A stretch of DNA of 62,453 bases. It comes from Candidatus Zipacnadia bacterium. Its GTDB lineage: Bacteria > Armatimonadota > Zipacnadia > Zipacnadales > Zipacnadaceae. Each line of letters starts with the position of its first letter. Position 1 is the stretch's first letter. The stretch spans positions 1 through 62,453 of the forward strand of contig JALGTU010000002.1 of NCBI GenBank assembly GCA_029821195.1, read 5' to 3'. Position numbers and translations under genes: made by a program. A model generated the notes under the pieces. The model made no database searches. It was not told the origin of the DNA and saw only the letters and a list, made by a program, of their open reading frames with translations. Below, one piece after another: positions 1-18,437 of the stretch.

Positions 1-779
1 AGGACGTTCTCGACGTAGTAGCGGGGGACCTGCCCGTGAAGCCAGTTGAACAGTCGGCCACTGGTGCTGGTGAAAGCGACGGTATTAGTCTGCTCGTCCA
101 CCTCCGCGATGCGTAGGCGCGCCTCGTCCCAACTGCGAAAGAGTACCAGCTCGGCCTGGTCAATATCCTCCCAGTTCGCTATATCACCGGGTTCAAACTG
201 GAAATACTTGAGCGTCTGGGGATCCTTCTGTTCAGCTTCCGGTGGCAGCTCGGCGACAGCATAGAAGCCCTCGCGGGGCAGCCGTGCCCGCGCCGCTCGC
301 CGCCCGTTTGCGAAGACCTGGCGGAAGTACCACTGTCCACTCTTGACCTCGGGTATCTCCACCGTCCACAGTTCGCCTTCTCCCTTCTGCCAGCCGGTGA
401 TTACCCGCCCGCCGCTGATGATCGGCTTCTCTCCGGGATAGGCCACATAGCTGATAGGGCATTCCCGGGTTCCCGAATCAGCGGGGGTAAGGATCAGCGG
501 CTCTGTCAGTTCGTAGACACCGCCACGGATCATAACCGTTACCGGAGCTTGCAGAGGGCCGGCCTGCTTGAGCTGGCGGACCGCATCGCGCGCGCGTGTT
601 AGCGTAGCAAAGGGGCCGTCGGTGCGGTCGGCCTTGGGTTGGGGCAATGTGCCGGACCAGGCGTCCGAGCCGTCGGCGGCAACATAAAGAGTCGCGGCAG
701 CTTGCGCTGGCTGGGCATCGGCAAGCGCTATCACGATGATCACTCCCAGTATTACTATTGTCCAAGCCAGTTGGCGCAT
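1..779 (-). CDS. Secreted right-handed beta-helix (pectate-lyase fold) protein, N-terminal part; the 3' end lies beyond the left window edge
   Basis: This ORF is absent from the ORF track because no stop codon falls inside the window. The reverse strand from ATG (779-777) is stop-free to base 1: MRQLAWTIVILGVIIVIALADAQPAQAAATLYVAADGSDAWSGTLPQPKADRTDGPFATLTRARDAVRQLKQAG... A hydrophobic signal peptide is followed by the LYVAxDGSD..G...PFATL.RARDAV opening typical of beta-helix glycan-active proteins. Confidence 0.6.
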   Translation of the reverse strand, partial: MRQLAWTIVILGVIIVIALADAQPAQAAATLYVAADGSDAWSGTLPQPKADRTDGPFATLTRARDAVRQLKQAGPLQAPVTVMIRGGVYELTEPLILTPADSGTRECPISYVAYPGEKPIISGGRVITGWQKGEGELWTVEIPEVKSGQWYFRQVFANGRRAARARLPREGFYAVAELPPEAEQKDPQTLKYFQFEPGDIANWEDIDQAELVLFRSWDEARLRIAEVDEQTNTVAFTSTSGRLFNWLHGQVPRYYVENV

Positions 780-909
780 CTGAACGCGCATATTCCCTGC
801 CGGGCCGGATAGTTCCTGCCTGCGAGATTGCTGAAAGACCGCGAGATCTTTGGCTACCACCGGCTGATAAGGAGGAATTGGCGGAGCCGCGAAGCAAACA
901 TAGGGAGGA

Positions 910-2751
910 TTGCGATCAATACTGCACTGCCAGGAGGAAGGTGTATTGCCTGCATACCGAGTAAAGCTGATACCGGAGTCGTTCCGGGTGGAGTCCGAGA
1001 CCGACCTGCGCCTTGAATTGACCTGCTCCGAGCCGCTAGCACCGGGAACGAGAATCGAGTGGCAGTTCCCTAACGCGTGGCTGGTGCGAGGTTGTCAGAG
1101 CTTCACCAAGCAGTACCAGTGGGACGATCCAGAGGCCGCCGACTACATCAGCGTGACCGTGCCCGGTCGGGACTGCGACTTTGATCTTTCGGTAGAAACG
1201 CGGGAGTTTGACAGCGGGGAGCCGGTGTCCCGGCACGGGCGGCGGATATTCTCAACGCTCACCCAGGGGACAGTCCCTGCGGGTAGCCCCGTGGTGCTGG
1301 AGTGGCTGAATACCACCGCGTCCTGGATCGCGGAGACTGAACACGTTTATGTCGCCGTGGACGGCGAAGCGATTACACCGCTGCCTGAGATCATTACCTG
1401 GCCCGGCCAAGCCGTGGCGCTGCGGGTGATTGCACCTTCGGCGGTGGCGCCCGGCGAGCGGGTTACTGTGCGTATCGTCTCTCTGGACCGGCGGGACAAC
1501 TGCTCGTGTACTCGCTACAGGGGCGAGCCACTGCGCGGGCCTAATGGTCAGCCGCTGACCAGGCCGCTGGACTTCTATGGCTCCTGCGTCGTGGAGGTCA
1601 GCTTGCCCGACGAGGGCATATACCGCCTGCGCTATGGCGAAGTGTTGAGTAATCCTATCCGCGTTACCCCCGACCCACAGGGCCCGTACTGGGGCGATAT
1701 CCACATCCACACCTGCTACTCAACGGACGGCACGGGCCGAGAGTTCTACGAATATGCCCGCGACGTATCCGGCCTGGACTTCGCCGCCGCCGCCGACCAC
1801 GCCGAAACGGTCATCTTCTCCTGGGACAAGCTCAAACAGCTCGCCGAGCAGTTCAACCAGCCGGGACGATTTGTCACCTTCCTGGCCTACGAGAACGGGT
1901 TCGGTCACCCCTCGGGGCATCACAATGTCCACTACCGCACGCTCGAAGGCAAGGTCTACCCGCGCGATGAGGTAGACGGCGATATGCGCAACGTCTGGCC
2001 GCAACTGGACCCGGAGGAGTGCTTCACTGCGCCTCATCACAGCGGTATTTCCTTCGGCTCGCTCGAACGTCACAATGCGGTGACCTTCGAGCACGAAGAC
2101 CAGCGGTTCTCCCCGGTGGCGGAGATCTACTCGCATCATGGGCAGAGCGAGCTGTATGATCCGCACCACGAACTGGCCTACGAGGTCAACCGCTGGCACG
2201 ATCCGGGTGAGCGGGTTAACTGGTCAGTGCCCGGCCCGTACTACCTGCAGGATGCCTGGGCAATGGGCCTGCGCCTGGGGGTATACGGCTCCTCCGATGA
2301 TCACAACGGGATGGGCGGGCGGCGGCATCAGGGCATCGCCGCAGTCTTCGCGCCGGAACTGACCCGCGAAGCGCTCTTCCAGAGCTTCAAGCGGCGCGCC
2401 TGCTACGCGACAACGGGCGAGCGGATTCTACTGGAATTCACTATCAATGGCACACCGATGGGCCAGGAAATCACGGCGGCACCGGGTGATGAACTGGATA
2501 TCCGCATTGCCGTCTACGGCACCAATGACCTCAGCCAGGTCGAGGTGCTGAGACTCGACCTGGGAAGCGGTCAGTACACGACAGCACTTAACTGGCGACC
2601 TCAGCAGCTTGGCCAGTTAGACTGGGAGACGGACTTGATGGAGGTATTTACCGAGCCGGTGATGTATTACCTGCGCGTCACCCAGCACCGGCCCGTCAAC
2701 CACCGGCTGGTAATGGCCTGGTCATCGCCGATCTGGGTAACAGAAGAGTAG
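910..2751 (+). CDS. DUF3604/PHP-like metal-dependent hydrolase with an N-terminal beta-sandwich-like region
   Basis: 613-aa ORF. The motif YWGDIHIHTCYSTDG, followed by AADHAE, HHSG and SSDDHNG His/Asp clusters, fits the PHP/DUF3604 metal-site pattern. TTG at 946, preceded by AGGAGGAAGG (932-941), is a more plausible start than 910. Confidence 0.7.
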   Translation: MRSILHCQEEGVLPAYRVKLIPESFRVESETDLRLELTCSEPLAPGTRIEWQFPNAWLVRGCQSFTKQYQWDDPEAADYISVTVPGRDCDFDLSVETREFDSGEPVSRHGRRIFSTLTQGTVPAGSPVVLEWLNTTASWIAETEHVYVAVDGEAITPLPEIITWPGQAVALRVIAPSAVAPGERVTVRIVSLDRRDNCSCTRYRGEPLRGPNGQPLTRPLDFYGSCVVEVSLPDEGIYRLRYGEVLSNPIRVTPDPQGPYWGDIHIHTCYSTDGTGREFYEYARDVSGLDFAAAADHAETVIFSWDKLKQLAEQFNQPGRFVTFLAYENGFGHPSGHHNVHYRTLEGKVYPRDEVDGDMRNVWPQLDPEECFTAPHHSGISFGSLERHNAVTFEHEDQRFSPVAEIYSHHGQSELYDPHHELAYEVNRWHDPGERVNWSVPGPYYLQDAWAMGLRLGVYGSSDDHNGMGGRRHQGIAAVFAPELTREALFQSFKRRACYATTGERILLEFTINGTPMGQEITAAPGDELDIRIAVYGTNDLSQVEVLRLDLGSGQYTTALNWRPQQLGQLDWETDLMEVFTEPVMYYLRVTQHRPVNHRLVMAWSSPIWVTEE

Positions 2752-2764
2752 ACTATAGAAGTGT

Positions 2765-2935
2765 GTGAATATGAGCAATCTGACTGAAATATTTGACAGC
2801 AGTAAGGCCCGGGCGGCGGGCGACGACGAGGCCGCTCAGCAGTACCAGAAGCTGTTCACCAACGGAAGTCGCTGGTGGGACGAATACGGCTTCAACGGCG
2901 AGTACTACATCCAGGATATCCGTCCGTCGATCCGC
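2765..2935 (+). pseudogene. Short remnant resembling an internal segment of a GH116-type glycoside hydrolase
   Basis: The only family-like part of the 103-aa ORF is ...AAGDDEAAQQYQKLFTNGSRWWDEYGFNGEYYIQDI... The FNGEYY(I/F)Q block is what I recall from GH116 catalytic domains. The rest of the ORF runs into REP-like hairpins at 3050-3108, and there is no room for a full-length enzyme. Confidence 0.3.
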
Positions 2936-3049
2936 AGGTCATCGAGTTCCCCGAAGGCCTTGAGCTCGCCGCCGGAGAGAGCTTTAGTGTTGAGGGATAG
3001 TAGAAAGTCGAAAGTAAGGGCAAAGAGCGAACGGCTGCCTCACCCCCGA

Positions 3050-3073
3050 CCCCTGCTCCCTGCGGGAGAGGGG
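3050..3073. repeat. GC-rich imperfect hairpin (REP-like)
   Basis: CCCCTGCTCCC-tgc-GGGAGAGGGG forms 10 bp with one bulge. It lies in the tail of the spurious part of ORF 2765..3076. Confidence 0.5.
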
Positions 3074-3084
3074 TAAGATAGGCC

Positions 3085-3108
3085 GACAGGCGAGACGCCT
3101 GTCGTACC
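3085..3108 (+). repeat. REP-like hairpin with TACC tail (family member)
   Basis: GACAGGCG-AGA-CGCCTGTC is a perfect 8-bp stem, followed by GTACC. The same motif recurs at 18413, 46415 (reverse orientation) and 46442. Confidence 0.6.
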
Positions 3109-3186
3109 AATCAAGGACAGGTCGAGCAACTCACCGGCAGAAAGCCCGTTAGCGAAAGACGGTCGCCTCAATCAGCGAGATAACTT

Positions 3187-4278
3187 ATGACAGCTAAAGA
3201 ACGCGTAAAGCAAGCGCTGCGTCACCAGGAGCCGGACCGCGTGCCGGTGGACTTCTGGTCGTCGCGGCAGATGGACGATAAGCTGCTCAGCCACCTGGAC
3301 CTGGCAAGCCGCGAAGAGCTGCTGACCCAGTTCGGCGTTGACTTCCGCTACATCGAGGGGCCCGTCTACATCGGGCCGTCGCTGCGGGTTGACCCCGACG
3401 GCACGGCTTACGACGTGCGAGGGGTGGCACGACGGCAGCAGACCATCGCAGGAGACGGCTGGCAGGAGTCATACTGGGAAGTCTCTGACTATCCTCTAGC
3501 CGACTGTACGACCCCTGCGGAGGTCGCGGCTTACGATAAGTGGCCCTCGCCGGACTGGTTCGACTACTCGGTCATCAAGGCTCAGTGTGAGGCCTGCGGC
3601 CAAGCCTGCGTAGTATTCTCGGGCGACCGGCTCAATCGCATCGCCCAGCTCAAGCCGGCGATGTATCTGCGGGGCATTGATCAGATACTGGTTGACCTGC
3701 TGATAGCGCCAGACATTTTTGCGGCAATCGTCGGGCGCATCCGGGACTTCTATCTGGAGTACGAGCGGCGGATACTGGAGGCGGCAGCCGGGGGTATTGA
3801 TCTGCTGATGACCGGCGACGACTTCGGTACCCAGGACGGGCCGATAATGGCGGTGGCGAAATGGCGCGAGACGCTCCAGCCGGGCTTTGCCGCCTTTATC
3901 GAGCTGGCGCACCAGTATAACGTACCGGTAATGCACCATAGCTGCGGAGCGGTAAGCGAATTCATCCCTGACTTCATTGCTAGCGGTCTGGACGTGCTGC
4001 AGAGCATCCAGCCGGGTGTGCGGGGGATGGACCACGCGCGGATCAAGCGAGAATTCGGGCGCGATATCGCCTTTGCGGGAGGGATCAGTATTCAGCACAA
4101 CCTGCCGCACGGGTCCCCCGAGCAGGTGCGCGAGGAAGTCAAGCAGCTATTCGAGATAATGAAGCCGGGGGGCGGCTACTTCGCCGGGACAGCCCACAAC
4201 CTCCTGGCGGATGTGCCGAGCGACAACGTACTCGCGCTTATTGAGGCATACCGCGAATTCGCCGGCTATGAGCACTAG
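3187..4278 (+). CDS. Uroporphyrinogen-decarboxylase (URO-D) family protein, MtaA/CmuA-like
   Basis: 363 aa with an ATG start. The N-terminal KERVKQALRHQEPDRVPVDFW, together with the DDFGTQDGPIM and HHSCG segments, matches the URO-D/methylcobamide methyltransferase fold family. The TAG stop (4276-4278) overlaps the TA flank of repeat copy A. Confidence 0.7.
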   Translation: MTAKERVKQALRHQEPDRVPVDFWSSRQMDDKLLSHLDLASREELLTQFGVDFRYIEGPVYIGPSLRVDPDGTAYDVRGVARRQQTIAGDGWQESYWEVSDYPLADCTTPAEVAAYDKWPSPDWFDYSVIKAQCEACGQACVVFSGDRLNRIAQLKPAMYLRGIDQILVDLLIAPDIFAAIVGRIRDFYLEYERRILEAAAGGIDLLMTGDDFGTQDGPIMAVAKWRETLQPGFAAFIELAHQYNVPVMHHSCGAVSEFIPDFIASGLDVLQSIQPGVRGMDHARIKREFGRDIAFAGGISIQHNLPHGSPEQVREEVKQLFEIMKPGGGYFAGTAHNLLADVPSDNVLALIEAYREFAGYEH

Positions 4279-4500
4279 CACGAGCAATTGATGAACGGCT
4301 TGTGGGGAACCCGCTTTTTAGGCAAAAAAAGCCGGTTCCCCACACCCTTCCGGCAAAAACTTGGAAAGTTGAATAACGGGGTTGACAATTGCATCGTGTC
4401 GTTGTTCCAGAAAACTGGGCATTGACGGTAAGGGGCTTTGACAGCTATCCATAGCTCCTGAGATGCTTGTTCAGCTTATCTTGGTGGATAGTACGAACTA
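4276..4500 (+). mobile_element. MITE-like intergenic element, copy A (225 bp, TA to TA)
   Basis: It shares the core ATGAACGGCTTGTGGGGAACCCGCTTTTTAGGCAAAAAAAGCCGGTTCCCCACACCCTTCCGGCAAAAACTT with copies B-E, at the same 15-nt offset from the left TA. The hairpin is at 4301-4344. The right end CTTGGTGGATAGTACGAAC-TA is a degenerate version of the right TIR. The element fills the whole gap between two convergent genes. Confidence 0.65.
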
Positions 4501-6498
4501 GATCCAGAAAATCTGGTTGTAAGTGTGCCCGGTTAGCCAGTCTATGAAGACCCAGGCGACATTGCAGGTGAACTGGCCGCAGATAAGCCCGAGGAAGATC
4601 GGCCGCATGTTCTGGTAGGCAACCATGCCGCCATAGCGCAAAATCGCGCCCTTGGTCAGCCAGGTGAGGAAGATCGTGAACCAGAGCTGGTCCATGAGCC
4701 AAACACTGCCGATGCAGTAGCCAATGGGATGGAAAGGCCACTTGGGCGAGCGAAAGCGCAGGGCAGTAAGCACCAGGTAGATGGCGGCTCCCAGCGCGGT
4801 ATAGACCCACCCGCCGACACTGGGACTGGGCTGCCTGCCACACCAATCCTCCACCCACTTGAAAGCCGCCTGCGGGCTGCCGCTAAAGAACCAGTTACTC
4901 ATCGTCACGCCGCCCTGCGAGTAAGCGCGGGTCATCGTCAGCCACATAGAGGCGACTAAAGCCACCAAGATGGCTATCACAAACCCCCAGAAGAGCCGGC
5001 GATGTTTGGCCTCGATGACGCCGGTCATCTTCAGGCTGTTGGCGGCGGAAGCCATTACGAAGGTGCGGATATCGCTGGTCCAGATGTAGGTCAGGCCTAG
5101 GGCAGTCATCCCCCGGTCGCCCAGCACGCCCCAGCCGAGCCAACCAGGCACCACCGCCGAGGCGATGGCGGGGGCGACGGCCTCGGCCATACCGCTCTCG
5201 GCGACGATCCGCGTCAGCCCAATGAAGAAGACGAATGCCATAAGCAGAAACAGTGGCACGACCAGCGCCGGCAGACCCGACGCCCCCAGCCACCAGCCAA
5301 TCAAGACCAGCCCGATGATCGTCCCCCAGAAGGCGACGCGATAGGAGAGAATCTCCTTCTCATCAACCTCTGGGCCGGCCTCGCCGGTCACGCGCTTCCA
5401 AATCAGGCTCAGGTGTCCGCGAGCAACCCACAGCCCGGTGACGACCAGGGCGAGGAAGGCGCCGGTGCCGACGTACTTGAGGATAGGGTCACGCGCGCCG
5501 TAGATGCCCAGGTTCTCGGTACTGGCGATGCCCAAAGAGGTCATAGCCGCGCGCACCGCCTGGGTCAACAGGTTGAAGAACCATAGGCTGAAACTGGTCT
5601 CCAAGCTCACCAGATAGAAGAAACCAATCATCGGGAAGCTGATGCGAAAGCTCAGTGACCAAATGCCCTTGACCAGGGCAACTGACTGGACGAGTTTGAG
5701 ACTCGGCACCGGCGGGAAGTAGTTGTGCAAGCCGACCCAGCTACCCGCCAGGAAGGCGATGCCGAAGCCGATCCAGAAGGTTTTCCGCGAAAGAATAACA
5801 GGCCAGCCCTTGCTGTCAGCGCCGGCCAGTGCCAGGGGCAGATAGGTCAGCGGGTAAGCGAGGCGCTCGTTGTCCACCCACTGCTTACGCAGCAGTACCA
5901 TCATGCAAATCATCACGAAGTGGACAGCGAGCAGCATCGGAATCCACGCTGACAAGGACGGGACCCAGGCGCTCCACGGCACCTGCCCACCCGCCGGAAG
6001 ACCCTCGAACAGATAGGTGATTACCGGTGTGTCGGGGGCGGCGCCCTGCGGGGCTGCCCACGCCGGGATATTGGGCACGATGGTCTCCGCCCAGTTGTTC
6101 TCAGGGGTGGCGTAGTAGTGCGCTCCGGTGGACAGAGGTATTACCTGCGCAGTCAGGCCCATAGTAGGAACGGCGGAAGCGATCACCATCATCGTGTAGA
6201 TGGTGATCAGTTCAGCAGTGGTCAGCGCAAGGCTGCGGCGAAAGCGCAGCAACAGCAAGTTCGGGCCAGCCACGAGGACAAAAAGCAGAGCCACTGCGGC
6301 GGGCGTGCTGAAGTCCAGGGCCATATACGAGGCGTGCAGCACGTGGATAGCCCAAGGCGCAAGCAGCCCGATAGCCGCTGCCCCCACCGCGCCCAGCAGC
6401 AGGGCACGACCAGTTATTACGCCGTGCTGGCGCCCGCCGCTGTTGTTGAGGGTCTGATTTGCCCGGGATTCGTCAGGCTTAGCTGCCATTTCTGCCAA
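4498..6498 (-). CDS. Large polytopic membrane protein, DUF6785/DUF6784-like
   Basis: 666 aa with many hydrophobic helices. It is clearly paralogous to 60648..62453. Shared blocks are QVPW(S/D)AW, W(V/I)D(N/H)ERL(A/V)(Y/F)PL, FP(F/L)HPIGY and ILRYGG. Confidence 0.75.
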   Translation of the reverse strand: MAEMAAKPDESRANQTLNNSGGRQHGVITGRALLLGAVGAAAIGLLAPWAIHVLHASYMALDFSTPAAVALLFVLVAGPNLLLLRFRRSLALTTAELITIYTMMVIASAVPTMGLTAQVIPLSTGAHYYATPENNWAETIVPNIPAWAAPQGAAPDTPVITYLFEGLPAGGQVPWSAWVPSLSAWIPMLLAVHFVMICMMVLLRKQWVDNERLAYPLTYLPLALAGADSKGWPVILSRKTFWIGFGIAFLAGSWVGLHNYFPPVPSLKLVQSVALVKGIWSLSFRISFPMIGFFYLVSLETSFSLWFFNLLTQAVRAAMTSLGIASTENLGIYGARDPILKYVGTGAFLALVVTGLWVARGHLSLIWKRVTGEAGPEVDEKEILSYRVAFWGTIIGLVLIGWWLGASGLPALVVPLFLLMAFVFFIGLTRIVAESGMAEAVAPAIASAVVPGWLGWGVLGDRGMTALGLTYIWTSDIRTFVMASAANSLKMTGVIEAKHRRLFWGFVIAILVALVASMWLTMTRAYSQGGVTMSNWFFSGSPQAAFKWVEDWCGRQPSPSVGGWVYTALGAAIYLVLTALRFRSPKWPFHPIGYCIGSVWLMDQLWFTIFLTWLTKGAILRYGGMVAYQNMRPIFLGLICGQFTCNVAWVFIDWLTGHTYNQIFWI

Positions 6499-6642
6499 CT
6501 AGGTAAGAAGTAGAGGCCCGCCGGTCGCAAAAGGGCCGCGGCCTCATGTGAGCCGGTAACATTCTATCAATTAACACCCGCCTTGTCCAGTCTTACCGGC
6601 AACATCACATCCAGTATAAGATATGCCCAGTCTGCGCGACAG

Positions 6643-6999
6643 TTAGCCCGACAGCGCGAGGGTTATGCGCAGCATCAACAGGGCCCACAGCACCACAATT
6701 CCCGCCGCCACCGACATCCATATCCAGCGAGAGTTCAGTTCGCGTTCGTCGTAGGTCTTCCAGATCGCCAGGGCCGCCAACCCCACCGCCAGGACTAGCC
6801 CCAGTACCGCTACCCATATTCTCGGGGACTGGCTGATCAGCGGCTCCAGGACATCATCGGGCAAGTCGGCCAGCCGCCCGGGGAATGTGAAGACCGGCCC
6901 GATCAGAGAAACCGGGATCACTACGTCAAGGACCAATACCGCCACGAGCACGGCAACTGCAACAAACCACCACGGGTCATCTTGGTGAGGGGCAGCCAT
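6643..6999 (-). CDS. Small integral membrane protein, unknown function
   Basis: 118 aa with 3-4 hydrophobic helices. Its start overlaps the stop of the upstream gene by 1 nt (TAATG at 6997-7001), which suggests translational coupling. Confidence 0.6.
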   Translation of the reverse strand: MAAPHQDDPWWFVAVAVLVAVLVLDVVIPVSLIGPVFTFPGRLADLPDDVLEPLISQSPRIWVAVLGLVLAVGLAALAIWKTYDERELNSRWIWMSVAAGIVVLWALLMLRITLALSG

Positions 7000-7652
7000 T
7001 ATTCGGGTCTCTTGACCTCCATCACTTTCATGCTCGGCACGGTGTAGATATACCTGTCTACGGCCAGGAGGCGGGTTCCGCTCATCTTGCCCAGGATAAG
7101 CACCGGCCGGGTGGCCTGTAAGTAGGCGTTGAGAAGCGCGGAATCATTGCCAAACTCCAGGACGACTTCCTTCTTGCCAATTAGCTTGCGGTCCTGGTAT
7201 TTCTCAGTCAAGGCGACGCGCTGGCCCTTACGTTGCGGGACAATGACCCAGTAACTGGTGCTATCCCCGTTCAATTCAACCTGGACCAGCGCGTTGTAAA
7301 AGGCCCCTTGCGGCGAGACGCGGGCGACGTGAAACGGGATCAGGGGCGTGTTCCAGATGATGGCAAAGGCCAGCAGCACCAATCCCACAGCAATCAGATA
7401 GCCGTACTGCTGGGTCTCGGTGGTGGTTATCCACCAGCCCGCAATACCCAGCACGGCAGTGATGAGAACGTCCACGATCATCTCCCACATCATATGAAAG
7501 CGCAGATTGGTGGTGGTGGTAACCAGGCCCAGCTCCTCCTGGTGTTCAACCAGGTACGGGACACTGTTATACTTGGGCAGAAAATCGCTGGCAGATACCA
7601 GCAGGTAGATGACCGCGATAGCAATTACCACATATCCAATTACCTTGTTCAC
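6999..7652 (-). CDS. Membrane protein with three N-terminal TM helices and a C-terminal soluble domain, unknown function
   Basis: 217 aa. It is the first gene of a co-directional string of three membrane proteins (7652 -> 4498). Confidence 0.6.
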   Translation of the reverse strand: MNKVIGYVVIAIAVIYLLVSASDFLPKYNSVPYLVEHQEELGLVTTTTNLRFHMMWEMIVDVLITAVLGIAGWWITTTETQQYGYLIAVGLVLLAFAIIWNTPLIPFHVARVSPQGAFYNALVQVELNGDSTSYWVIVPQRKGQRVALTEKYQDRKLIGKKEVVLEFGNDSALLNAYLQATRPVLILGKMSGTRLLAVDRYIYTVPSMKVMEVKRPE

Positions 7653-8059
7653 CTATCAGTGGCCCCTCTCTCGATCTGTGTCAGTTCTCCAACGGTAGGC
7701 TCACCGGCGCCACTTGCTTGACTGACTCGTACGACTAAGCTTTTGGCCGCTCCGGTGCGATATCGTACACATACTTGGTCTGACAGCGAGCAATCTGCTG
7801 AGAAAATGCCGGCATGCTTCGAGCCCAGGCATCCCGCACCTATTACGGCAAGGCTTATCTTTTGAGTCCACCTCTCCAGCAAGCAGCAACACAGTCAGTT
7901 GACGAACCTAATTTTATATTCCCCGCAATTTGGCCTATTCCTTCGTGGTCAGGAGGAATCCGAAATCGAGGCGCGAATACATAAGTATTACCCGGAGCGG
8001 CCGGCAACTGCAGTGACCTCCGGCAGGCGGGAGAAGAATCTGGGCACGGGTGGACCAGG

Positions 8060-11000
8060 GTGAAGCCAACTATCGGGGAATTAACCAGAATCCCGGAAGA
8101 CATCGGGCCGGTCTCGCTCAGCAACCTGAGCGCGCTGCGCGACGAACTGGCCCAGGAGCCTGCTGAGCTGTCCCTGACTGCGGCTGCCCAGGTGACGCGA
8201 CTGCTGGACGACTACATTGCCGCCGACGGCGACGAAGCGGAGCGGACACTCGGAGAAATCCTGGATTCAGTCCTGGGCGAGGGTGGCGAGGGCTCGAGCA
8301 TCCTGGTGCAGGGCCCCGCGCGCAGCGGGAAATCGCATCTGCTGGCGGCGGCGGCCCTGCTGCTGGAATACCCGGCAGCGTGGCGCATCTTCTTGAGCCG
8401 ACACCCGCACTTTGAGGCGTGGCACCAGAGATTTCAACAAGCCCGTCCAGTGCTGGTCGTGCCCATCGCGCTCGATGAGCACCGGGGCGACCGGGACCAC
8501 CTCGAGGACATTGTCTTCGATCAAACGGCCCGGGAACTGGCGCGCCCCAAGTACAATGCCGCCGTGCCGCTGTCCCAGCAATCGTATGCACTCGAGCTGA
8601 TTGATCGCCACGTCGTGCCTCGCTACGCCGAGCAGCTCAACGAGCAGGCCCGCCACGAGCCGGGTGGCTACACCACCTGGGAGCAATTGCGGCGCCGTAG
8701 CCCGGGCGACGCTATTGCCCTGGCGCAACATGTCGCGCAACAACTGGGTTATCCGCTGGACTTCCGCCAGTCGCGCATCGAACGACTCTCACGCCTGCTG
8801 CAGCTCCTGCTCGAAGAGCATCTGCAGGGCGTGGTCTGGCTCATTGACGACCTGTCCGGGTTCCTGGCCAGCGCGGACCGCAAGGCCGTGCACAGCGACT
8901 GCAGCTTTCTGGAGTTCATCGGCCAGCGCAGCAAGATCGAGCCGCTGCACATCGTCGCAGGGATTGAGGACGGGCTTGAGTACATCATCGGTCTGGAACC
9001 GTACCTGATGGGCAGTCTGCGTAATCTGTACAAGGCGAGCTACGATCTGTCGGCCAAACAGATGACGCGGGTCGCCCGGCAACGGATGATCGGCCGGACC
9101 AGCGCCACCGAGCTCGATGCGGCCATCGAGCAGACCCTCGCGAGCTACCGAGATGCATTCGGCGAGCTAAGCTTCAGCGCCGATGACCTGCCGCAAACCT
9201 ATCCGCTCCACCCGCTGGCCCAGCAGTGCCTGGAAGCGAGTACGCAACGTTATGTCGCCGCCGCCGATGGCCTGCTGCAGTTCGCCGCCGCACCCGAGAG
9301 CAGCGGAGGCCTGGCGGCATTCGCTGACCGCGCCAATTGCCAGCTTATCGGCCCGAGCGAGCTGGTCCGTTACGCTCAGACCGCAGTCAGCTCGCACCCC
9401 GAGGCCAGCGCATACTTCAACGAGGTGCTTGACTTCTATGAACGCAACATCGTCGAACTTGTGCCGGAGAATCCCGAGCTCGCGCTGGACGTCATCCGCT
9501 GCATGATTGTCCTGCGTCTGGGCAACGTCCCGGCGTCGGCGAAAACGATTGCCGAATGCCTGGGTGTAGAGGCCAGCGGCGGCGCGCGGCTAACTGTGAC
9601 GCAGGCCCGCGAGATGCTGGAAGTGCTGCGCCTGACCAGTAACTATGTGGACGTACGCCGCGGGCCGGACCCGGAGTCTTCAGTCTACCTGATTGATGCG
9701 TATACCAACCTGACTAACCTGGTGCGGCAACGGCTCAACGCCGTCAAGGCCACGTTCGCCAACGAGGACTCGCGCCTGTGGCAGCGCATAATTGCCGCCT
9801 GTGAGACTCCCGCCTTCCCCCTGGCCGAATTGACGCGCAACCAGCTCTATGAGGTAGTCTGGGAAAACACGATCCGGTGCGTCGCGGTGCAGATTGCCAA
9901 CTTGTCCAGCCTCACTGCTCCGCAACTGGAGGCGCAATCGGCCGAACTGGCTGATCCGGCCACCCGTCAGGACTGTCAGATATTCCTCGGCGAGCTGCTG
10001 CGCGTGGCTGACCAGGAGAGCAGTTGGTCGCATCTGCAAGCTATCGCGGGCAAAGCGCGCTGGCACCACGGTCTGGTAGCGTGGCTACCCCGCCCCCTGA
10101 GCGCGGAGGAAGTGGAGATCGTTAAGCAAGCCGCGGCCTGCCACCAACTGCTGCAGCAGCCAGCACCGGAGGCCGAACTGCAAGGTGCGTGGCGGGGACG
10201 GCTGGTGGAAGAGCGGATGACGCTCGAGAACCAAGTCCGGCAAATTGCTGCCGATGCTTATTACCATGGGCAGATTTCTACATTTAGCGGCCTGGCGGTT
10301 TCTGCCGAGCAACTGGCGGCTACCACCGGGGACTGGGCGATTACGCTGGCGAGAATTGCCGAACCCAGCTTCAGCGCGCTGTTTCCCGATTTTTCCGCAG
10401 TAGCTCCACACCGGGTCATTACCAGTCAGGACCAGATTGACCAGATAGTGGCTGAGCTAATTACACCCGTTGAGATTGCCAATGCGGAGGGCTCGACCAT
10501 CCGCGAACTCGCCGAGGCTTTCCTGCTGCCGATGGGCCTGGTGCAGATTGATGACGAGACCATGCGGGTTGATCCCAGCACGAGCCCGGTGGCCGAGGAG
10601 ATTCTCAACCGCATCCGCCAGCGCGACCAGACCCCCCAGCAGGAACAGGGCCGGCCGCTGGCCTGCGCGGACCTCGCCCAGCACCTGCTCAAGTCACCAC
10701 TGGGACTGCCGCCGCATCTTTTCGAGCTGGCCATTGCCGTGCTGGTTCGCCTGGGCTATCTGGTGGCGCTGGACGCCGAGCACCAACCGCTGCGGTTCGC
10801 GGACATCCCCCTGCCCCTCGCCAGGCACGTCCACTACATTGCCCGGCCCGCGCTGCTGCCACTGACCAGTTGGCAGGCGCTGGGGAAGGTGGCGCGTATT
10901 GTCCTGGACACCGGCATCCCCGGCCCGAGCCTGCGCTTTCAACACCAGATTTGGCAGGAGTTGGTCACGGCCCGCGCGACCCAGCTTCGGCGCCTGGGCG

Positions 11001-12088
11001 AGATTGAGCAGCGACTCGACGAGCTGATCACCGCGCTGGAGCAGGCGCATAATAAGTGGAATGACTGCGCCCTGGACATCTCGGCGGCGAGTGAGTTTTA
11101 CGAGATGATTGAACCGAGCAAGCCCAGCTCGGAAGGGATCAGCGACTTCATCGGCAAGCTGGCGCCGTACCTCGACGCTAGCGAAGGCAGCACGCTGCTG
11201 CGGAACCTGCTGCGGCGGATTGATATCCTGGATGAGTTTGTCGAGCGGATGGGCCCGGAGCTAATCCGAATCAAGCAGTACCTGGCCAGCCCCCTGCTGC
11301 ACCTGCCCGAGGGCTCGGACCTGGGCCAGCGCCGTGATGCCCTGCACGAAGTGCTCGACAGCGGCGAGCAAATCATCGCCGACCAGGTGGCGTTCCACCG
11401 AGCAGTGCAGGTGTTTCTGACCCGTTACAAGCGCCACTATCAGGGCTGGCATAGCCGGGCACACCGTAACCCGACCTTCGAACAGTACCGGCGATTCCGG
11501 GCCACCCCCGAATACCGGGCGCTGACCCAGCTCCAGGGCCTCGATATCAAGGTCGAGCACGACGCGGCAAGCGTCGGTGAGATGATCGAGAATTTCCTGG
11601 CCCAACAGTGTAACAACCGCAATCTCGCCGAGGACCTCGAGCGCGAGCCAGTGTGCCCGCAGTGTCACCTCCGGCTCAACCAGGAGCTCCAACTCCCCGC
11701 CGTGGACGAACTGGCCCAGGCTACTCAGGACGGCCTGAGGGAATACTTCGCCGCGCTCAGCGGCTCCGGACTGCGCCAGAAGCTGAGTACCTACGCTCTG
11801 GCCCTGCCCCAGCAGGGCGACGTCAATGCCAAGCTCCACGCGCTGACCGAACTGGTCGGCGAGCCCAGCCCGACGCAGATCCTAAAACTGCTTACCGACG
11901 ACGTGATCGGGCATATCAACCGGGTTATCGCGGGCAAAACACTCATACCGCGTGATTTTGGTCAACTGCACGATATGCTGGCGGGCCGAGCGCTGACCAA
12001 ACAGGAAGTGCAGGCGCTCTTTAGCGCGTGGGTAGAGGGCAGTGGCGAAGATCTCGAGAACGACGACCTCCTCCAGATCGAAGAATAG
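8060..12088 (+). CDS. Very large P-loop NTPase, BrxC/PglY-like (DUF6079-type architecture), orphan
   Basis: 1,342 aa. An 84-aa leader precedes Walker A GPARSGKSHLL (8312-8344) and Walker B-like VVWLIDD (8831-8851). A long helical body follows, with a single CPQC (11654-11665) near the C-terminus. The family assignment comes from recalled architecture, not from a search. Confidence 0.55.
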   Translation: MKPTIGELTRIPEDIGPVSLSNLSALRDELAQEPAELSLTAAAQVTRLLDDYIAADGDEAERTLGEILDSVLGEGGEGSSILVQGPARSGKSHLLAAAALLLEYPAAWRIFLSRHPHFEAWHQRFQQARPVLVVPIALDEHRGDRDHLEDIVFDQTARELARPKYNAAVPLSQQSYALELIDRHVVPRYAEQLNEQARHEPGGYTTWEQLRRRSPGDAIALAQHVAQQLGYPLDFRQSRIERLSRLLQLLLEEHLQGVVWLIDDLSGFLASADRKAVHSDCSFLEFIGQRSKIEPLHIVAGIEDGLEYIIGLEPYLMGSLRNLYKASYDLSAKQMTRVARQRMIGRTSATELDAAIEQTLASYRDAFGELSFSADDLPQTYPLHPLAQQCLEASTQRYVAAADGLLQFAAAPESSGGLAAFADRANCQLIGPSELVRYAQTAVSSHPEASAYFNEVLDFYERNIVELVPENPELALDVIRCMIVLRLGNVPASAKTIAECLGVEASGGARLTVTQAREMLEVLRLTSNYVDVRRGPDPESSVYLIDAYTNLTNLVRQRLNAVKATFANEDSRLWQRIIAACETPAFPLAELTRNQLYEVVWENTIRCVAVQIANLSSLTAPQLEAQSAELADPATRQDCQIFLGELLRVADQESSWSHLQAIAGKARWHHGLVAWLPRPLSAEEVEIVKQAAACHQLLQQPAPEAELQGAWRGRLVEERMTLENQVRQIAADAYYHGQISTFSGLAVSAEQLAATTGDWAITLARIAEPSFSALFPDFSAVAPHRVITSQDQIDQIVAELITPVEIANAEGSTIRELAEAFLLPMGLVQIDDETMRVDPSTSPVAEEILNRIRQRDQTPQQEQGRPLACADLAQHLLKSPLGLPPHLFELAIAVLVRLGYLVALDAEHQPLRFADIPLPLARHVHYIARPALLPLTSWQALGKVARIVLDTGIPGPSLRFQHQIWQELVTARATQLRRLGEIEQRLDELITALEQAHNKWNDCALDISAASEFYEMIEPSKPSSEGISDFIGKLAPYLDASEGSTLLRNLLRRIDILDEFVERMGPELIRIKQYLASPLLHLPEGSDLGQRRDALHEVLDSGEQIIADQVAFHRAVQVFLTRYKRHYQGWHSRAHRNPTFEQYRRFRATPEYRALTQLQGLDIKVEHDAASVGEMIENFLAQQCNNRNLAEDLEREPVCPQCHLRLNQELQLPAVDELAQATQDGLREYFAALSGSGLRQKLSTYALALPQQGDVNAKLHALTELVGEPSPTQILKLLTDDVIGHINRVIAGKTLIPRDFGQLHDMLAGRALTKQEVQALFSAWVEGSGEDLENDDLLQIEE

Positions 12089-12311
12089 TACCAATAAGCG
12101 ATGAACGGCTTGTGGGAAACCCGCTTTTTAGGCAAAAAAAGCCGGTTTCCCACACCCTTCCGGCAAAAACTTTGTAAGTTGAGCAAGGCAGTTGACAACT
12201 GGATCGCGTCGTGGTTCACAGAAAACTGCGAATTGGGGTAGGAGGCTTTGACGGCTATTTCTACGGCGCTGAGAGGCTCATTAAGTTTGTCCTCGTGAAT
12301 AATGTAGGCTA
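12086..12311 (+). mobile_element. MITE-like intergenic element, copy B (226 bp)
   Basis: The left TA is the TA of the TAG stop of the 1,342-aa gene. The hairpin is at 12111-12154 (TGTGGGAAACC/GGTTTCCCACA). The right TIR CCTCGTGAATAATGTAGGC is followed by TA (12310-12311). Confidence 0.65.
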
Positions 12312-12428
12312 ACCCATACATCTGGCCTCGCCAGCTCTCTGGGACAATACGAGCAGCTTGTTCGGGAACTTCGTATCTCCTGCACCCGTCAAATGATTGA
12401 GCCTAAGGGACCCAAGTAGGCAACCATC

Positions 12429-13145
12429 ATGAGCACACCCAACGCCCAAAATTTGCATCGCATGACTGTGGGGGTGGCCGTGCTGGCCATCGCCGGAGCC
12501 ATCGGACTGGCGTTGGTCGTGCTGTGGCCTCGACTGCCACCTACTGAAGAAGCGACTCCCGCGCCGCGCGAGGAGCAAGCCGAACCGGGCGTGACCATCA
12601 CGCGCCCGCTGATCAAGCATACGGAGAATGGGCGGCTCGCCTGGCAAGCGCAGCTCCGGGAACTTCATCTGTCCCACGGCGGCGAAATGCTCGAGGCTAA
12701 GGGCCTCGAGGAGGCCATTATCTATAGTAAGGCGGGCGCGCCACTGGTGCGGATAACTGCCGACAAGATCAGCGGCAATACCGGGCAGCGAGACTTCGAT
12801 GTCAGCGGAAATGTGCGGGTGGTCTCGTACCGGGGCGCGATTATCACTACCGCTGAAGCGAGTTGGAACCAGAAGGAGGAGGTGATCCGATGCCCGGGTA
12901 AGGTCACGCTGAAGAGCAAGCAAGCGATCATTACCGCAACTAAGCTAGACTACTTCGCCGCCGAGGACCTGATAAAATGCCCGGAGCAGGTGCGGATGTA
13001 TGCCGGCGATAACACGGTGATCGGCCGCAAGCTAGTATACAATATCGAGACGGGCAACTTCGCTCTCAACGAGGTGCAGATGGTCTTCCACGCCGAAGAG
13101 GCCAAAGAAAAACTGAGCGAGATAAGGGAGCTGCAAGAAGAATGA
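12429..13145 (+). CDS. LptC-like periplasmic LPS-export protein (N-terminal membrane anchor plus OstA-like fold)
   Basis: 238 aa. One N-terminal TM helix is followed by beta-jellyroll-like repeats (ISGNTGQRDFDVSGNVRVV..., VIGRKLVYNIETGNFAL). The stop overlaps the next gene (ATGA at 13142-13145). Confidence 0.5.
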   Translation: MSTPNAQNLHRMTVGVAVLAIAGAIGLALVVLWPRLPPTEEATPAPREEQAEPGVTITRPLIKHTENGRLAWQAQLRELHLSHGGEMLEAKGLEEAIIYSKAGAPLVRITADKISGNTGQRDFDVSGNVRVVSYRGAIITTAEASWNQKEEVIRCPGKVTLKSKQAIITATKLDYFAAEDLIKCPEQVRMYAGDNTVIGRKLVYNIETGNFALNEVQMVFHAEEAKEKLSEIRELQEE

Positions 13146-13927
13146 GAAACTGGACGATTGTGGGCGCAGCGGCGTTGGGCGCACTGATCTTGCTGGCTGG
13201 CTTGGCCACTGCCCACCCGCCCGTGGCCGCTCAGCCACCACCACCACCGGAGCCGCCCGCCCTGGCACCGGAGCCTGAGACCCAGGAAACCGAAGAAGAC
13301 GAGGATATTGTCAAGGTCGAGCACGCCGCCTTGGTCGAATATGACGCCGCCCGGGAAATCTACTACTTATCCGGGAACGTGATCTTCAGCCACCAGGACG
13401 TCAAGATGTATTGCGACGAAGCGTGGTATAACGAGGCCGATGACAGCGCTCGCGCCACCGGGCATCTCAAGATCGTGGACCCAGAAGCGACTATCACCGG
13501 CGACCTGTGTACCGCCGACTTCGATGCCGAAGTCGCCACAATAACCGGTAACGTGACTATGGTCACGCAAAAGAAAAAGAAAGAGTCCGAGGGCGAAGAG
13601 GAAAAGTCCAGCAAGTTTGATGAATACCGGGAGAAGAAGACCACCATCACGTGCCCGAAGATAGTCTACGAGTACGCCGACGATGTGAAGAAGGCCAACA
13701 TCTTCGGGCGGATAAAGGCAGTCCAGGAGGATAAAACGGCCTGGGCCGACCACGCGGTTTACGAAGAGCTCGCAGACATTGTCACGCTGACGGGAAATGT
13801 GCTGGTCAGGACGGAGAAGGGCGAAGAGTTCCGCTCGCCCGAGGTTGTCATCGCCACTGAGGACGAGTGGATGAAGGCCAAGGACGTCACCGGCATAACC
13901 TTCCGCAAGAAGAAGGCCGAGGAGTAA
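13142..13927 (+). CDS. LptA/OstA-like periplasmic protein with an internal Lys/Glu-rich insert
   Basis: 261 aa with a signal peptide. OstA-like segments are present (YYLSGNVIFSHQDVKMYCDEAWYN, TLTGNVLVRTEKGEEFRSPEVVI). A charged insert QKKKKESEGEEEKSSKFDEYREKK is also present. Confidence 0.5.
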   Translation: MRNWTIVGAAALGALILLAGLATAHPPVAAQPPPPPEPPALAPEPETQETEEDEDIVKVEHAALVEYDAAREIYYLSGNVIFSHQDVKMYCDEAWYNEADDSARATGHLKIVDPEATITGDLCTADFDAEVATITGNVTMVTQKKKKESEGEEEKSSKFDEYREKKTTITCPKIVYEYADDVKKANIFGRIKAVQEDKTAWADHAVYEELADIVTLTGNVLVRTEKGEEFRSPEVVIATEDEWMKAKDVTGITFRKKKAEE

Positions 13928-13969
13928 CGCGACAGCGGCGGGGTCATCCGTGTGCTCACCCCGGCCGGT

Positions 13970-15106
13970 TTAGTACAACCGCTGAATCCGCTCCCAAAAC
14001 AACGCGCGGCGAAAGGCCCGGTTGACTTCCATCGCGGTATCGGCTACCGACTTGCCGACCAGTGCCGCATCCTCCGGATATATGGTGAACAAGATCTTGT
14101 CGCGGGCGGCAATTGCGGTGTGGTTCTGGTGACTGACCGTACGGAACTCGAAGGCCCGCGCGCCGTCGCGCAACACCTGGGTCAGGGCTTCGACCATCCG
14201 CTGTCCGCGCACAGTGACGTCACCCTCGTCCGGTGCGTCGGCAAACGCAAATAGCTCCTGGTCCCACAGCTTCAAAATCTGCGCAGGCCTGCCGCCGACT
14301 TCACCCTCCTCTACAATCGGCGGGTCCCATTTGGTGACGGCTCGCCGATTTATTTCCACGCCCGCGTCTTGTATGAGATGAGTGAGGTGGGAAACGCGTT
14401 GGGTGGACAGCGGGTGGGTCTGGAAGATGCCAAGCTCGGTGGTAGGTCTGCTGCGTTCCTCGCGCGCCAGACGCTCCATGAAGGTAAGCAGCCCTACTGG
14501 ATTGTACCCGGCTCCCAGCAGATAGGAAAGCGCGTTGCGGTCCGCGCGGCTCTCGATCTCGATCGAGTACTTCGACAGTATCCCGCGGGTGACTACCTGG
14601 CCCGCCGTCAGCACGCCGTAGGTCGTATCGTCGCTGCGCCCCGTGGCTATCGAGAGGATCAGCGCGACAGCGGTCGCCAAGGACATATCGTGGGCCCGCT
14701 TGAGCTGGTCAAGCACATCGTAGGTGCAGTTGTGCGCCATTTCATGGGCGATAATGCCGGCTAACTGCGCCTCCGACTCCACCGCATTCAGCACGCCCTT
14801 GTAGATGTAAATGTGCCCTCCCGGCACGCTGAAGGCGTTCACCTCCTCGTCATCCAGCAAGACTACCTGATACGCCACATCGGGCCGCTGCGTATGGGCG
14901 GCCAGGTCGGCGACTATCTTCTCCACACGTTGTTGCTGCTCTTCGTTCTCGTATACCTTGTACTCCTTGGCAATCTCCGCTGCGGTACGGTCGCCGACCT
15001 GCTTTTCGTACTCCTCGCTCCACTCGCGAGCCGTCGCTACCCCGACGCTGAGGAGCGCCGCCAGGGCAACTGCAATCAAGCTCTTCGGATATCGCAATGC
15101 GTTCAT
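13970..15106 (-). CDS. M48-family zinc metalloprotease (BepA/YfgC-like)
   Basis: 378 aa with a signal peptide, the HEMAH zinc motif (IIAHEMAHN) and a downstream ESRADRNAL segment. Confidence 0.75.
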   Translation of the reverse strand: MNALRYPKSLIAVALAALLSVGVATAREWSEEYEKQVGDRTAAEIAKEYKVYENEEQQQRVEKIVADLAAHTQRPDVAYQVVLLDDEEVNAFSVPGGHIYIYKGVLNAVESEAQLAGIIAHEMAHNCTYDVLDQLKRAHDMSLATAVALILSIATGRSDDTTYGVLTAGQVVTRGILSKYSIEIESRADRNALSYLLGAGYNPVGLLTFMERLAREERSRPTTELGIFQTHPLSTQRVSHLTHLIQDAGVEINRRAVTKWDPPIVEEGEVGGRPAQILKLWDQELFAFADAPDEGDVTVRGQRMVEALTQVLRDGARAFEFRTVSHQNHTAIAARDKILFTIYPEDAALVGKSVADTAMEVNRAFRRALFWERIQRLY

Positions 15107-15188
15107 CTGCCTATCTCCACGTACTTAGACGCCCTCTCCCCTTGAAAGTTCTGTCTGCCAGAGGAGGGAGTGAGCCGCACGGTCCGGA

Positions 15189-16931: not shown

Positions 16932-16934
16932 CGC

Positions 16935-18302: not shown

Positions 18303-18373
18303 ATTGGACTTTTCTTCGGCGACGTGATGCATGAAGTTGTATTAAGAAAGCGATATTGTTTGGAAAACTGGCG

Positions 18374-18437
18374 GGACAGGCGACCTACCTGTCCAAACTG
18401 CTCAGACATTCGGGACAGGCGAGACGCCTGTCCTACC
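18374..18437 (+). repeat. Two adjacent REP-like hairpins
   Basis: GGACAGG-cgaccta-CCTGTCC lies at 18374-18394. GGACAGGCG-AGA-CGCCTGTCC plus TACC lies at 18413-18437. Both sit in the gap between the YfhO-like and radical SAM genes, and the second abuts the YfhO stop codon. Confidence 0.6.

Follow-up and report, generated by a model that had tools for sequence, protein, structure and literature searches.

Within a stretch of 62,453 nt from Candidatus Zipacnadia bacterium (Armatimonadota; assembly GCA_029821195.1, contig JALGTU010000002.1, positions 1 to 62,453 of the forward strand; hereafter the window), five copies of a non-coding repeat each carry a long hairpin, the arms of which vary from copy to copy while largely remaining complementary. 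The question raised by this locus is what exactly is being preserved, and in which nucleic acid it would act. A sequence-only reading of the window had proposed that the compensatory base changes reflect selection on the structure, as RNA or as single-stranded or cruciform DNA, and not just shared ancestry. Comparison with related copies suggests a broader answer: the left (L) and right (R) arms of the hairpin are followed by a third segment (T) which co-varies with them, and the best reading of the sequences is that a module of ~75 nt, here called the core, is under selection for a three-stranded fold. The core is carried by a miniature inverted-repeat transposable element (MITE), and the best explanation of the whole, which we hold as capable of proving right as wrong, is that such a fold acts in a plus-strand transcript, in the 3' untranslated region (UTR).

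The hairpin of copy A occupies positions 4301-4344 of the plus strand and reads TGTGGGGAACC-C-GC-TTTTT-AGGCAA-AAAAA-GC-C-GGTTCCCCACA. The stem of about 18 bp described in the sequence-only reading is borne out here by 11 outer pairs, a C.C mismatch, and GC plus T5/A5 closing a 6-nt loop. As delimited by sequence, fold and covariation, the L arm (TGTGGGGAACC C GC TTTTT) spans 4301-4319 and the R arm (AAAAA GC C GG TTCCCCACA) spans 4326-4344; the alignment places the loop AGGCAA between them at 4320-4325, and subfamilies differ in its length and sequence (GA, GGG, GAA). The 44-nt hairpin is present in all five window copies, and the other arms are as previously listed, with GGGAAA/TTTCCC in copy B, an imperfect stem in copy C, one T.T in copy D and GAAGAA/TTTTTC with one G.T in copy E. 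When the consensus core is folded as RNA, the hairpin is the minimum-energy fold on each strand (-31.7 and -35.5 kcal/mol, z = -3.1 and -3.7), and copy A folded as DNA gives -20.8 and -23.8 kcal/mol (z = -4.2 and -5.5) for the two strands. The folding tools handle Watson-Crick pairs only and are hence silent on a triplex. No Rfam family was matched in the window at gathering thresholds, and relaxed E-values returned chance matches to miRNA hairpins only (E of at least 0.31).

For the analysis of covariation, 146 distinct core sequences were gathered from the genome to which the window belongs (G000, a metagenome-assembled genome (MAG) of 3.0 Mb in 237 contigs with 61% G+C) and from loci in its relatives. 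A scan with a degenerate 25-nt pattern served to supply loci and otherwise gave many chance matches in unrelated phyla. The 94 distinct main-class sequences were aligned and covariation was assessed by pair counting, with a signal far above that of shuffled and slid controls. The stem cells pair in 94.7% of cases, compared to 36.7-62.7% with the partner slid by 1-3 columns, and changes on both sides are found in eight of the 18 stem pairs. Double-change cells number 123, against 46.6 ± 7.5 after shuffling, and none of 500 shuffles reaches the observed value. The alternative pairs are frequent in the alignment columns 3-43 (CG 46, UA 33), 5-41 (GC 85, AU 9), 6-40 (GC 55, AU 27), 7-39 (AU 40, GC 20), 16-29 (UA 71, CG 19) and 1-45 (UA 57, CG 13), while distant relatives contribute CCAGGG/CCCUGG and AGGGGG/CCCCCU. 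Compensated states recur across sequence backgrounds and genomes, for example TGTGG/CCACA versus TGCGG/CCGCA, or GGGAAA/TTTCCC versus GGAAAA/TTTTCC, GGGGAA/TTCCCC, GAAAAA/TTTTTC and GGAGAA/TTCTCC, and a switch between T-A and C-G within the T5/A5 tract recurs as well.

Events at the level of the DNA palindrome do occur, as one copy of the E-type subfamily (C188:1671-1885, in G000) has the central 23 nt of the hairpin exactly inverted; its centre, CCGGCTTTTTCCCAAAAAGCGGG, is the reverse complement of the usual one, as expected from hairpin- or cruciform-mediated template switching. Such switching between the arms of a quasi-palindrome is nevertheless insufficient to explain the pattern, because the C.C mismatch is retained in 120 of 127 sequences (it is repaired to G-C in three) and because a third, mirror-symmetric segment co-varies with the arms. 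Together with the repeated compensated switches, these observations uphold the proposal of selection on structure beyond shared ancestry, more firmly than the five window copies could by themselves, and the claim that the hairpin is kept by selection is thus supported by the sequences compared.

This third segment consists of the 15 nt directly 3' of the hairpin (CCCTT-CCGGC-AAAAA, at 4345-4359 in copy A), which mirror the R arm and vary with it; it is this three-way covariation that marks it as the proposed third strand. Five outer L/R/T classes are fully consistent, namely GGGAA/TTCCC/CCCTT, GGAAA/TTTCC/CCTTT, GGGGA/TCCCC/CCCCT, GAAAA/TTTTC/CTTTT and GGAGA/TCTCC/CCTCT, and a diverged form of the core (class II) has the outer haplotypes GGGGAAA/TTTCCCC/CCCCTT and GGGGGAA/TTCCCCC/CCCCCT. 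The inner part is represented by TTTTT/AAAAA/AAAAA, by TCTTTT/AAAAGA/AGAAAA in the family of genome G037 and in one solo core of G000 (a core without the inverted repeats of the MITE), and by TTTCT/AGAAA/AAAGA in class II and in genome G317. A triplex rule by which C stands opposite G-C and T opposite A-T holds at 578 of 607 positions in register (95%), whereas slid registers give at most 76% and shuffles 481 ± 7 positions, with none of 2000 reaching the observed number. Counted as parallel pairs, four L-T column pairs agree in 92% of the cells, every slid register being lower, and their double-change cells number 72 versus 20.9 ± 3.4 in shuffles.

A spanning tree was built from the columns other than the triplet columns, and the triplet changes were placed on its edges: all three sites change in 38 cases, exactly two in eight and one in 67. 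Some of the triplet switches separate sequences differing at 1-3 other positions only, and the same three-strand haplotypes are found on GTGG and GCGG backgrounds and in different genomes. As close relatives differ by such switches and both backgrounds carry the same haplotypes, these are repeated events and not one inherited block. Of the ten stem positions with a counterpart in the third strand, six change along with T, always by the triplex code. This is evidence of selection beyond that given by the hairpin, since a mirror repeat can neither be made nor corrected by copying either arm.

The polarity of the segments is informative regarding the type of fold. As T runs antiparallel to R, its outer part is parallel to the purine stretch of L, giving a pyrimidine motif with C+.G-C and T.A-T triplets, while its inner part is antiparallel to the purine stretch of R, giving a purine motif with A.A-T and G.G-C triplets. 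Oligonucleotide chemistry has the same design in its "alternate-strand" triplexes, where one third strand passes from one target strand to the other without changing polarity. The block orders are purine, pyrimidine, Hoogsteen strand (R-Y-H) in the outer segment and pyrimidine, purine, reverse Hoogsteen strand (Y-R-RH) in the inner one, so that both have the order and polarity required of an intrastrand triplex and correspond to its classes III and II, respectively (PMC4666352). The core falls outside the search criteria set for intrastrand triplexes (ITxF; 6-15 triplets, loops of 1-6 nt), with 5-7 triplets per segment and with the whole inner hairpin, ~27 nt, as the first loop of the outer segment. 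A classical H-type pseudoknot, with the third strand as loop 3 lying in the minor groove, is less likely, as the base code is that of a major-groove triplex and runs one-to-one with consecutive pairs.

Between the two triplex segments lies the second palindrome that the sequence-only reading had noted as overlapping the 3' arm. The palindrome stands, with GCCGG at 4331-4335 within the R arm, an N14 spacer, CCGGC at 4350-4354 and T7 next on the minus strand; its standing as an independent terminator-like hairpin does not. The N14 loop is made up of the remainder of the 3' arm and the start of the third strand, and CCGGC, the Watson-Crick complement of GCCGG, is the middle of the third strand. 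It competes for the GCCGG of R with the L-arm block CCCGC, from which it differs only at the position of the C.C mismatch. The middle R-T pairing is invariant in the main class and co-varies elsewhere (GCGGG/CCCGC in genome G312; GTGG or GCGG with CCGC in class II), and in no class has the L block lost its pyrimidine-pyrimidine mismatch. The conserved mismatch may tip the middle of the fold towards T as pairing partner.

In the window the core is carried by a larger element. A profile of the repeat (nhmmer) matches 78 loci in G000, all intergenic, of which ~50 are near full length and ~25 are partial or solo, and the element is non-coding and dispersed. An alignment of 54 copies including their flanks gives a true length of 225-227 nt, not ~130 nt, and 39 full copies share the family consensus ends TA-GCCCGGATTATTCATGAA...TTCGTGAATAATGCAGGC-TA. 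The terminal inverted repeats are ~18 nt long, with 15 of 18 positions identical between the left end GCCCGGATTATTCATGAA and the reverse-complemented right end GCCTGCATTATTCACGAA. Almost every one of the 39 full copies has a TA at each end, often flanked as C-TA-G, and a CTAG target is the preference of IS630. In about 20 of these 39 copies one flanking TA belongs to the stop codon of a neighbouring gene; the terminal G or A of the element then rebuilds TAG or TAA, and such insertions leave the protein unchanged. When the flanks of copy C were joined with one TA kept, the resulting 182-nt empty-site query was matched end to end by the sister genome G003 at 92% identity. The site is uninterrupted in G003, which reads ...CTATTAGGTTCC... 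with only one TA, whereas G000 reads ...CTCTTA[element]TAGGGTCA.... The inverted repeats, the TA duplication and the empty site together identify the element as a mobile, TA-duplicating MITE, like elements of the IS630/Tc1 type.

No match to the DDE_3 transposase domain (PF13358) was found in G000; fragmented MAGs such as this one often lack insertion sequences. In relatives, whose assemblies are likewise fragmented MAGs, the DDE_3 loci lack the inverted repeats of the MITE and have unrelated ends, and a fuzzy inverted-repeat search gave no pair of ends 1-1.5 kb apart. A putative promoter, TTGAAA-N16-GATAGT, is present 3' of the core in the element and is not kept by other subfamilies. In addition, two MITE copies of G000 (C209:2301-2591 and C193:5488-5843) are split within the core, between GGTTTCC and GGCAAAAAC, by another short repeat, ...CCGGTTCGACGAAGCTCACCACAAGCCACACCCTTCCCGCC...GCGGACAAG, pieces of which recur elsewhere, including on contig C64.

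The best-conserved part of the element is not its inverted repeats but positions ~18-97, comprising an invariant AACGG, the hairpin and then CACCCTTCCGGCAAAAACTTT. In the youngest subfamily (21 copies, 88-94% identity to the consensus), the core has 0.011 singleton changes per site, as against 0.018-0.027 for the inverted repeats and 0.033 for the middle of the element (Fisher p = 1e-5). The core, starting ~15 nt inside the left end in every copy, is common to MITE subfamilies that differ in their right halves, in other species of the genus; outside the genus it is found in another genus of the same family and in three further families of that order. Searching 301 Armatimonadota genomes with a covariance model of the core gave convincing matches confined to four families of this one order, and one weak match elsewhere in the phylum (E = 5e-4). 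Solo cores exist without inverted repeats or TA and include the class II form, GCGGGGAAACCCCTTTCTGAAGAAAGTGGCTTTCCCCGCACCCCTTCCGCAAAGACTTT. One such solo is shared by three species at an orthologous locus; its core is the same at 67 of 69 positions, whereas the DNA downstream diverges and a small hairpin just upstream shows compensatory changes.

A different arrangement is seen on contig C64 of G000, where a non-coding stretch of ~1.4 kb (C64:4486-5930; see also 400-560) contains at least three class II and main-type cores in one orientation. Each is followed by a long G+C-rich hairpin, and the cores are interleaved with a repeated sigma-70-like cassette, GGGGCGATTGACAG(C/T)AACCGG.GCACAGGCGTAGAC, ending ~10 nt before the core. 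In this setting the core could be transcribed on its own.

In order to see how the copies relate to genes, their orientation relative to the upstream gene was counted in G000. On gene calls made by a crude in-house codon-usage method, the intact MITEs are 12 in the same and 14 in the opposite orientation, copies with degenerate inverted repeats 24 and 7, and strict solos 11 and 2. All non-intact copies taken together are 35 same versus 9 opposite (binomial p = 1e-4; Fisher p = 0.008 against the intact copies). A looser classification including relatives gives 53 versus 17 for copies without and 42 versus 36 for copies with terminal inverted repeats. Like the non-intact copies as a whole, the solo cores mostly begin 2-35 nt after a stop codon, some of them being followed by a separate G+C-rich hairpin. 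The orientation bias and the position of old copies suggest a filtering of copies subsequent to insertion, with the plus-strand transcript as the molecule that matters; the gene context of old copies favours a plus-strand transcript and not the minus strand with its T-run.

The mechanism we propose would begin with the MITE inserting, in one orientation or the other, into a TA that often belongs to a stop codon. In the inserted element the L and R arms would form the Watson-Crick hairpin and the 15-nt T would fold back antiparallel to R. Its outer part would place C opposite G-C and T (or U) opposite A-T, parallel to the purine L arm, and its inner part A opposite A-T and G opposite G-C, antiparallel to the purine R arm; in the middle, the CCGGC of T would compete with the CCCGC of the L arm for the GCCGG of R. 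The fold would form in single-stranded nucleic acid, most likely the plus-strand transcript, within the 3' UTR of the upstream gene, where a very stable 3' structure could block 3' exonucleases and/or read-through, like REP hairpins and the triple-helix stability elements of eukaryotes and viruses. Over time, the copies retained would mostly be those with the core just behind a co-oriented gene. In this complete form, an alternate-strand intramolecular triple helix spread by a MITE within an Armatimonadota order and adopted by the host as a protective or insulating element at mRNA 3' ends, the proposal is a tentative one, and less than likely to hold in all its parts.

Several observations weigh against a three-stranded fold acting in a plus-strand transcript. 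Watson-Crick covariation extends to the three outermost stem pairs, and T follows them without a linker, so that the full 18-bp hairpin and the outer triplex cannot coexist; it must be assumed either that two states are used or that the geometry is not that of a textbook triplex. The outer plus-strand triplex needs protonated cytosines in runs, up to 4-5 in some variants; at neutral pH such variants, with 4-5 C+.G-C triplets in a row, are expected to be weak. A purine-motif triplex, the inner type on the plus strand, cannot form in RNA according to PMC4666352, although a recent review does list RNA purine-motif triples (PMC13541005). The middle pairing has one mismatch in several distant copies (genomes G029, G019 and G317). 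The gene calls behind the orientation counts are crude, and the placement behind stop codons is partly a legacy of insertion into the stop-codon TA. As to transcription, searches of sequencing runs gave only DNA runs from sediments and cold seeps, with at most 11% of the words, RNA runs of the same study sharing 0.00, and four metatranscriptomes searched with copy C at 80% likeness returned zero records. Finally, intermediates of the G.U and A.C types in the stem are about equal in number (~31 versus ~42 cells); their asymmetry had been considered as a pointer to an RNA strand and was discarded as uninformative.

The last point would also fit a structure selected in DNA, that is an intrastrand triplex, H-DNA or a cruciform in a single-stranded or supercoiled region, as has been put forward for the BoxC/PIT/TMECO repeats of E. 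coli, with effects on replication, recombination or local supercoiling. In keeping with this, R and T form a mirror repeat, the classical requirement of H-DNA, and segments of purine and pyrimidine motif both co-vary, both motifs being established for DNA while the purine motif is disputed for RNA (PMC4666352). The segments on the minus strand would moreover be independent of pH, with G.G-C and A.A-T outside, T.A-T inside and no protonated cytosine, and as an equivalent fold is possible on either strand, the presence of intact MITEs in both orientations is accommodated. A pure DNA structure that folds equivalently on either strand does not, however, predict the co-orientation of old and solo copies or their position 2-35 nt behind a stop codon, and a replication-strand bias acting through gene orientation is expected to be weaker than the 11 versus 2 of the strict solos. 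Nor does it explain that the L arm co-varies, as H-DNA in duplex DNA has no need of L. We consider this alternative, the main one, rather unlikely.

The three-stranded fold in a transcript is also to be set against a role in mobility itself, whereby hairpin and tail would be a cis-requirement for transposition, for example a site for transposase or a host factor beside the left inverted repeat, and covariation would stem from the active source copies. The constant start of the core close to the left end and its retention in subfamilies with different right halves are in line with such a role, as is the pattern of changes, compensated between subfamilies and in some young copies uncompensated. 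But the inverted repeats, which are the known transposase sites in elements of the IS630/Tc1 type, are less conserved than the core, in which singleton changes are three times rarer than elsewhere in the element, and the core persists where inverted repeats are absent, near-identical at an orthologous locus in three species. Furthermore, neither G000 nor the DDE_3 loci of relatives yielded a matching transposase, and we know of no single-stranded intermediate in cut-and-paste DDE transposition that would need a triplex. This makes a transposition signal quite improbable.

Still less can be said for the second palindrome as a rho-independent terminator on the minus strand (GCCGG-N14-CCGGC-T7), with the long hairpin as its alternative fold. 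T7 does follow CCGGC in all window copies, and to the right of all five lies the 3' end of a minus-strand or convergent gene. A 5-bp stem with a 14-nt loop is on the other hand a poor terminator, the long hairpin dominates every predicted fold, the T-run is the stem partner of the A-run, and the N14 loop co-varies with the stem, which is unneeded in a terminator loop. Intact copies are besides randomly oriented genome-wide, and old copies favour the plus orientation relative to the preceding gene. A minus-strand terminator is for these reasons highly improbable.

Nor was a canonical terminator retained as the principal reading. No U-run stands directly behind the 18-bp hairpin, the next letters being CCCTTCC on the plus and AGCCGTT on the minus strand. 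T-runs come only after sub-hairpins, GTGGG-N3-CCCGC-T5 (plus strand) and GCCGG-N14-CCGGC-T7 (minus strand), both of which are weak and not kept in all subfamilies. The former, a minimal terminator-like plus-strand hairpin in the 5' arm that a scan of the consensus flagged, is found at 4302-4319 and 12112-12129; it is perfect (GCGGG/CCCGC) in the GCGG variants, and the GAAAAA subfamily has lost it. Positions 1-20000 of the window show no enrichment of terminator-like patterns (17 versus 14.3 ± 3.7 expected). The remaining alternative, that there is no selection on structure and that subfamily ancestry plus arm-to-arm correction of a DNA palindrome by template switching suffices, can point to the exactly inverted centre CCGGCTTTTTCCCAAAAAGCGGG and to the many compensated states inherited within subfamilies, but its probability is close to negligible in view of a mirror-symmetric T that tracks the arms without being copyable from either, of a C.C mismatch that is kept instead of corrected, and of identical three-strand haplotypes on both backgrounds and in different genomes.

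The five window copies, all on the plus strand, show the parts of the element as follows. Copy A (4276-4500, TA to TA; model positions 1-223) fills the gap between convergent genes and reuses a stop-codon TA at both ends (4276-4278 and 4498-4500). According to the alignment with flanks and the ends of the five copies, its inverted repeats are degenerate, the left (consensus GCCCGGATTATTCATGAA) at 4278-4297 and the right (consensus TTCGTGAATAATGCAGGC) at 4479-4498, and its core, from AACGG through the hairpin and third strand to CTT, spans 4292-4362, being the best-conserved part and the one shared with relatives and solos. Its third strand fits at four of five outer positions, as L/R are now GGGGA/TCCCC while T remains CCCTT. 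Copy B (12086-12311; hairpin 12111-12154, third strand 12155-12169) uses the stop-codon TA at 12086-12088 and is consistent in all three strands (GGGAA/TTCCC/CCCTT). Copy C (29556-29782; hairpin 29581-29624, third strand 29625-29639) is the one absent at the G003 site. Copy D covers 31059-31284 (hairpin 31084-31126, third strand 31127-31141), and copy E, of a diverged subfamily, 60367-60593 (hairpin 60395-60433, third strand 60435-60449; GAAGA/TTTTC/CTTTT). Among the neighbouring genes, two paralogous minus-strand genes with DUF6785 and DUF6784 (4498-6498 and 60648-62453) end beside right ends of the MITE, copy A abutting the stop codon at 4498-4500 and copy E ending ~55 nt from the stop at 60648. 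A 1342-aa protein with a weak DUF6079 match (8060-12088; E = 1.4e-12) ends exactly on the TA of copy B.

Compared to known systems, the carrier resembles Correia/NEMIS of Neisseria and RUP of Streptococcus pneumoniae in its size (100-250 bp), non-coding nature, inverted repeats, TA duplication, tens of intergenic copies and insertion polymorphism between close relatives. Known MITEs are described as co-transcribed with neighbouring genes, forming stem-loops in RNA and carrying functional motifs (PMC4666352). In Correia/NEMIS and RUP the two terminal repeats pair to give the long RNA stem, whereas the conserved structure here is an internal module beside one end only, which outconserves the terminal repeats, exists without them and has a co-varying third strand. 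The nearest known thing to the core as a structure is the class of bacterial intrastrand-triplex repeats, with BoxC of E. coli (also known as PIT or TMECO) and the ITxF classes I-IV (Hoyne et al. 2000, cited in Holder et al. 2015; Holder et al. 2015, PMC4666352). These are likewise short, conserved, multi-copy intergenic repeats with three blocks forming Watson-Crick and (reverse) Hoogsteen triplets, and the complementary strand can form the partner class, as it can here. BoxC/TMECO differs in being a single G/C-rich purine-motif unit of 37 nt with loops of 1-6 nt, not found associated with mobile elements, and in having nearly identical copies that give no covariation. The core, in contrast, shows three-way covariation, has a MITE carrier, and nests two segments of opposite motif on one long hairpin, joined by a Watson-Crick-complementary middle.

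The position just behind stop codons is shared with repetitive extragenic palindromic (REP) sequences, which are high-copy palindromes just downstream of stop codons with proposed roles in transcription termination and mRNA stabilisation (PMC3733652). REPs are however 20-40 nt long, bear a GTAG or CGTC tag and are mobilised by REP-associated tyrosine transposases (RAYTs), whereas the present element has inverted repeats and a TA duplication. An identity with REP/RAYT was rejected, since the sole Y1_Tnp gene (C77:5163-5474) is flanked by another palindrome, GGGCCGGCTTCACTGCGTTCAACCGGCCC. This locus (C77:5040-5600 in G000), with its RAYT-like Y1 transposase (PF01797, E = 9e-8) and the palindromic repeat GCGGGCCGGCTTCACTGC(C/G)TTCAACCGGCCCCTCC on both sides, is probably a separate REP/RAYT system of the genome.

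In the ENE/MALAT1 type of element, an intramolecular major-groove triple helix at the transcript 3' end protects from decay, and transposable elements of plants and fungi carry such structures (PMC12501189, PMC7583470). The minus-strand RNA of the core has two U-runs and one A-run and could form U.A-U triples, while the plus strand has one U-run and two A-runs. An ENE clamps a 3' A-rich tail in a U-rich internal loop, whereas the core, which is bacterial, combines a closed hairpin and a strand folding back on it, made of mixed C/U and A blocks, a hairpin-plus-tail layout with no internal loop.

The case for triplex-forming repeats in bacteria (BoxC/PIT/TMECO) has so far rested on sequence potential and in vitro folding, and their biological relevance is disputed. 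The ~150 natural copies of the core in several genera amount to a mutagenesis series for a triplex, and their mirror-symmetric covariation is unusually clean evidence of in vivo selection for a three-stranded fold, because templated repair cannot yield it. As a defined 75-nt element with natural compensatory variants, the core would make the function of bacterial intrastrand triplexes directly testable. Should the proposed mechanism be true, a mobile element would be spreading a ready-made structured module which the host then filters by position and orientation. The core would then correspond, in bacteria, to the ENE/MALAT1 triple helices, and would be the first repeat family of bacteria in which a triplex is backed by evolutionary covariation.

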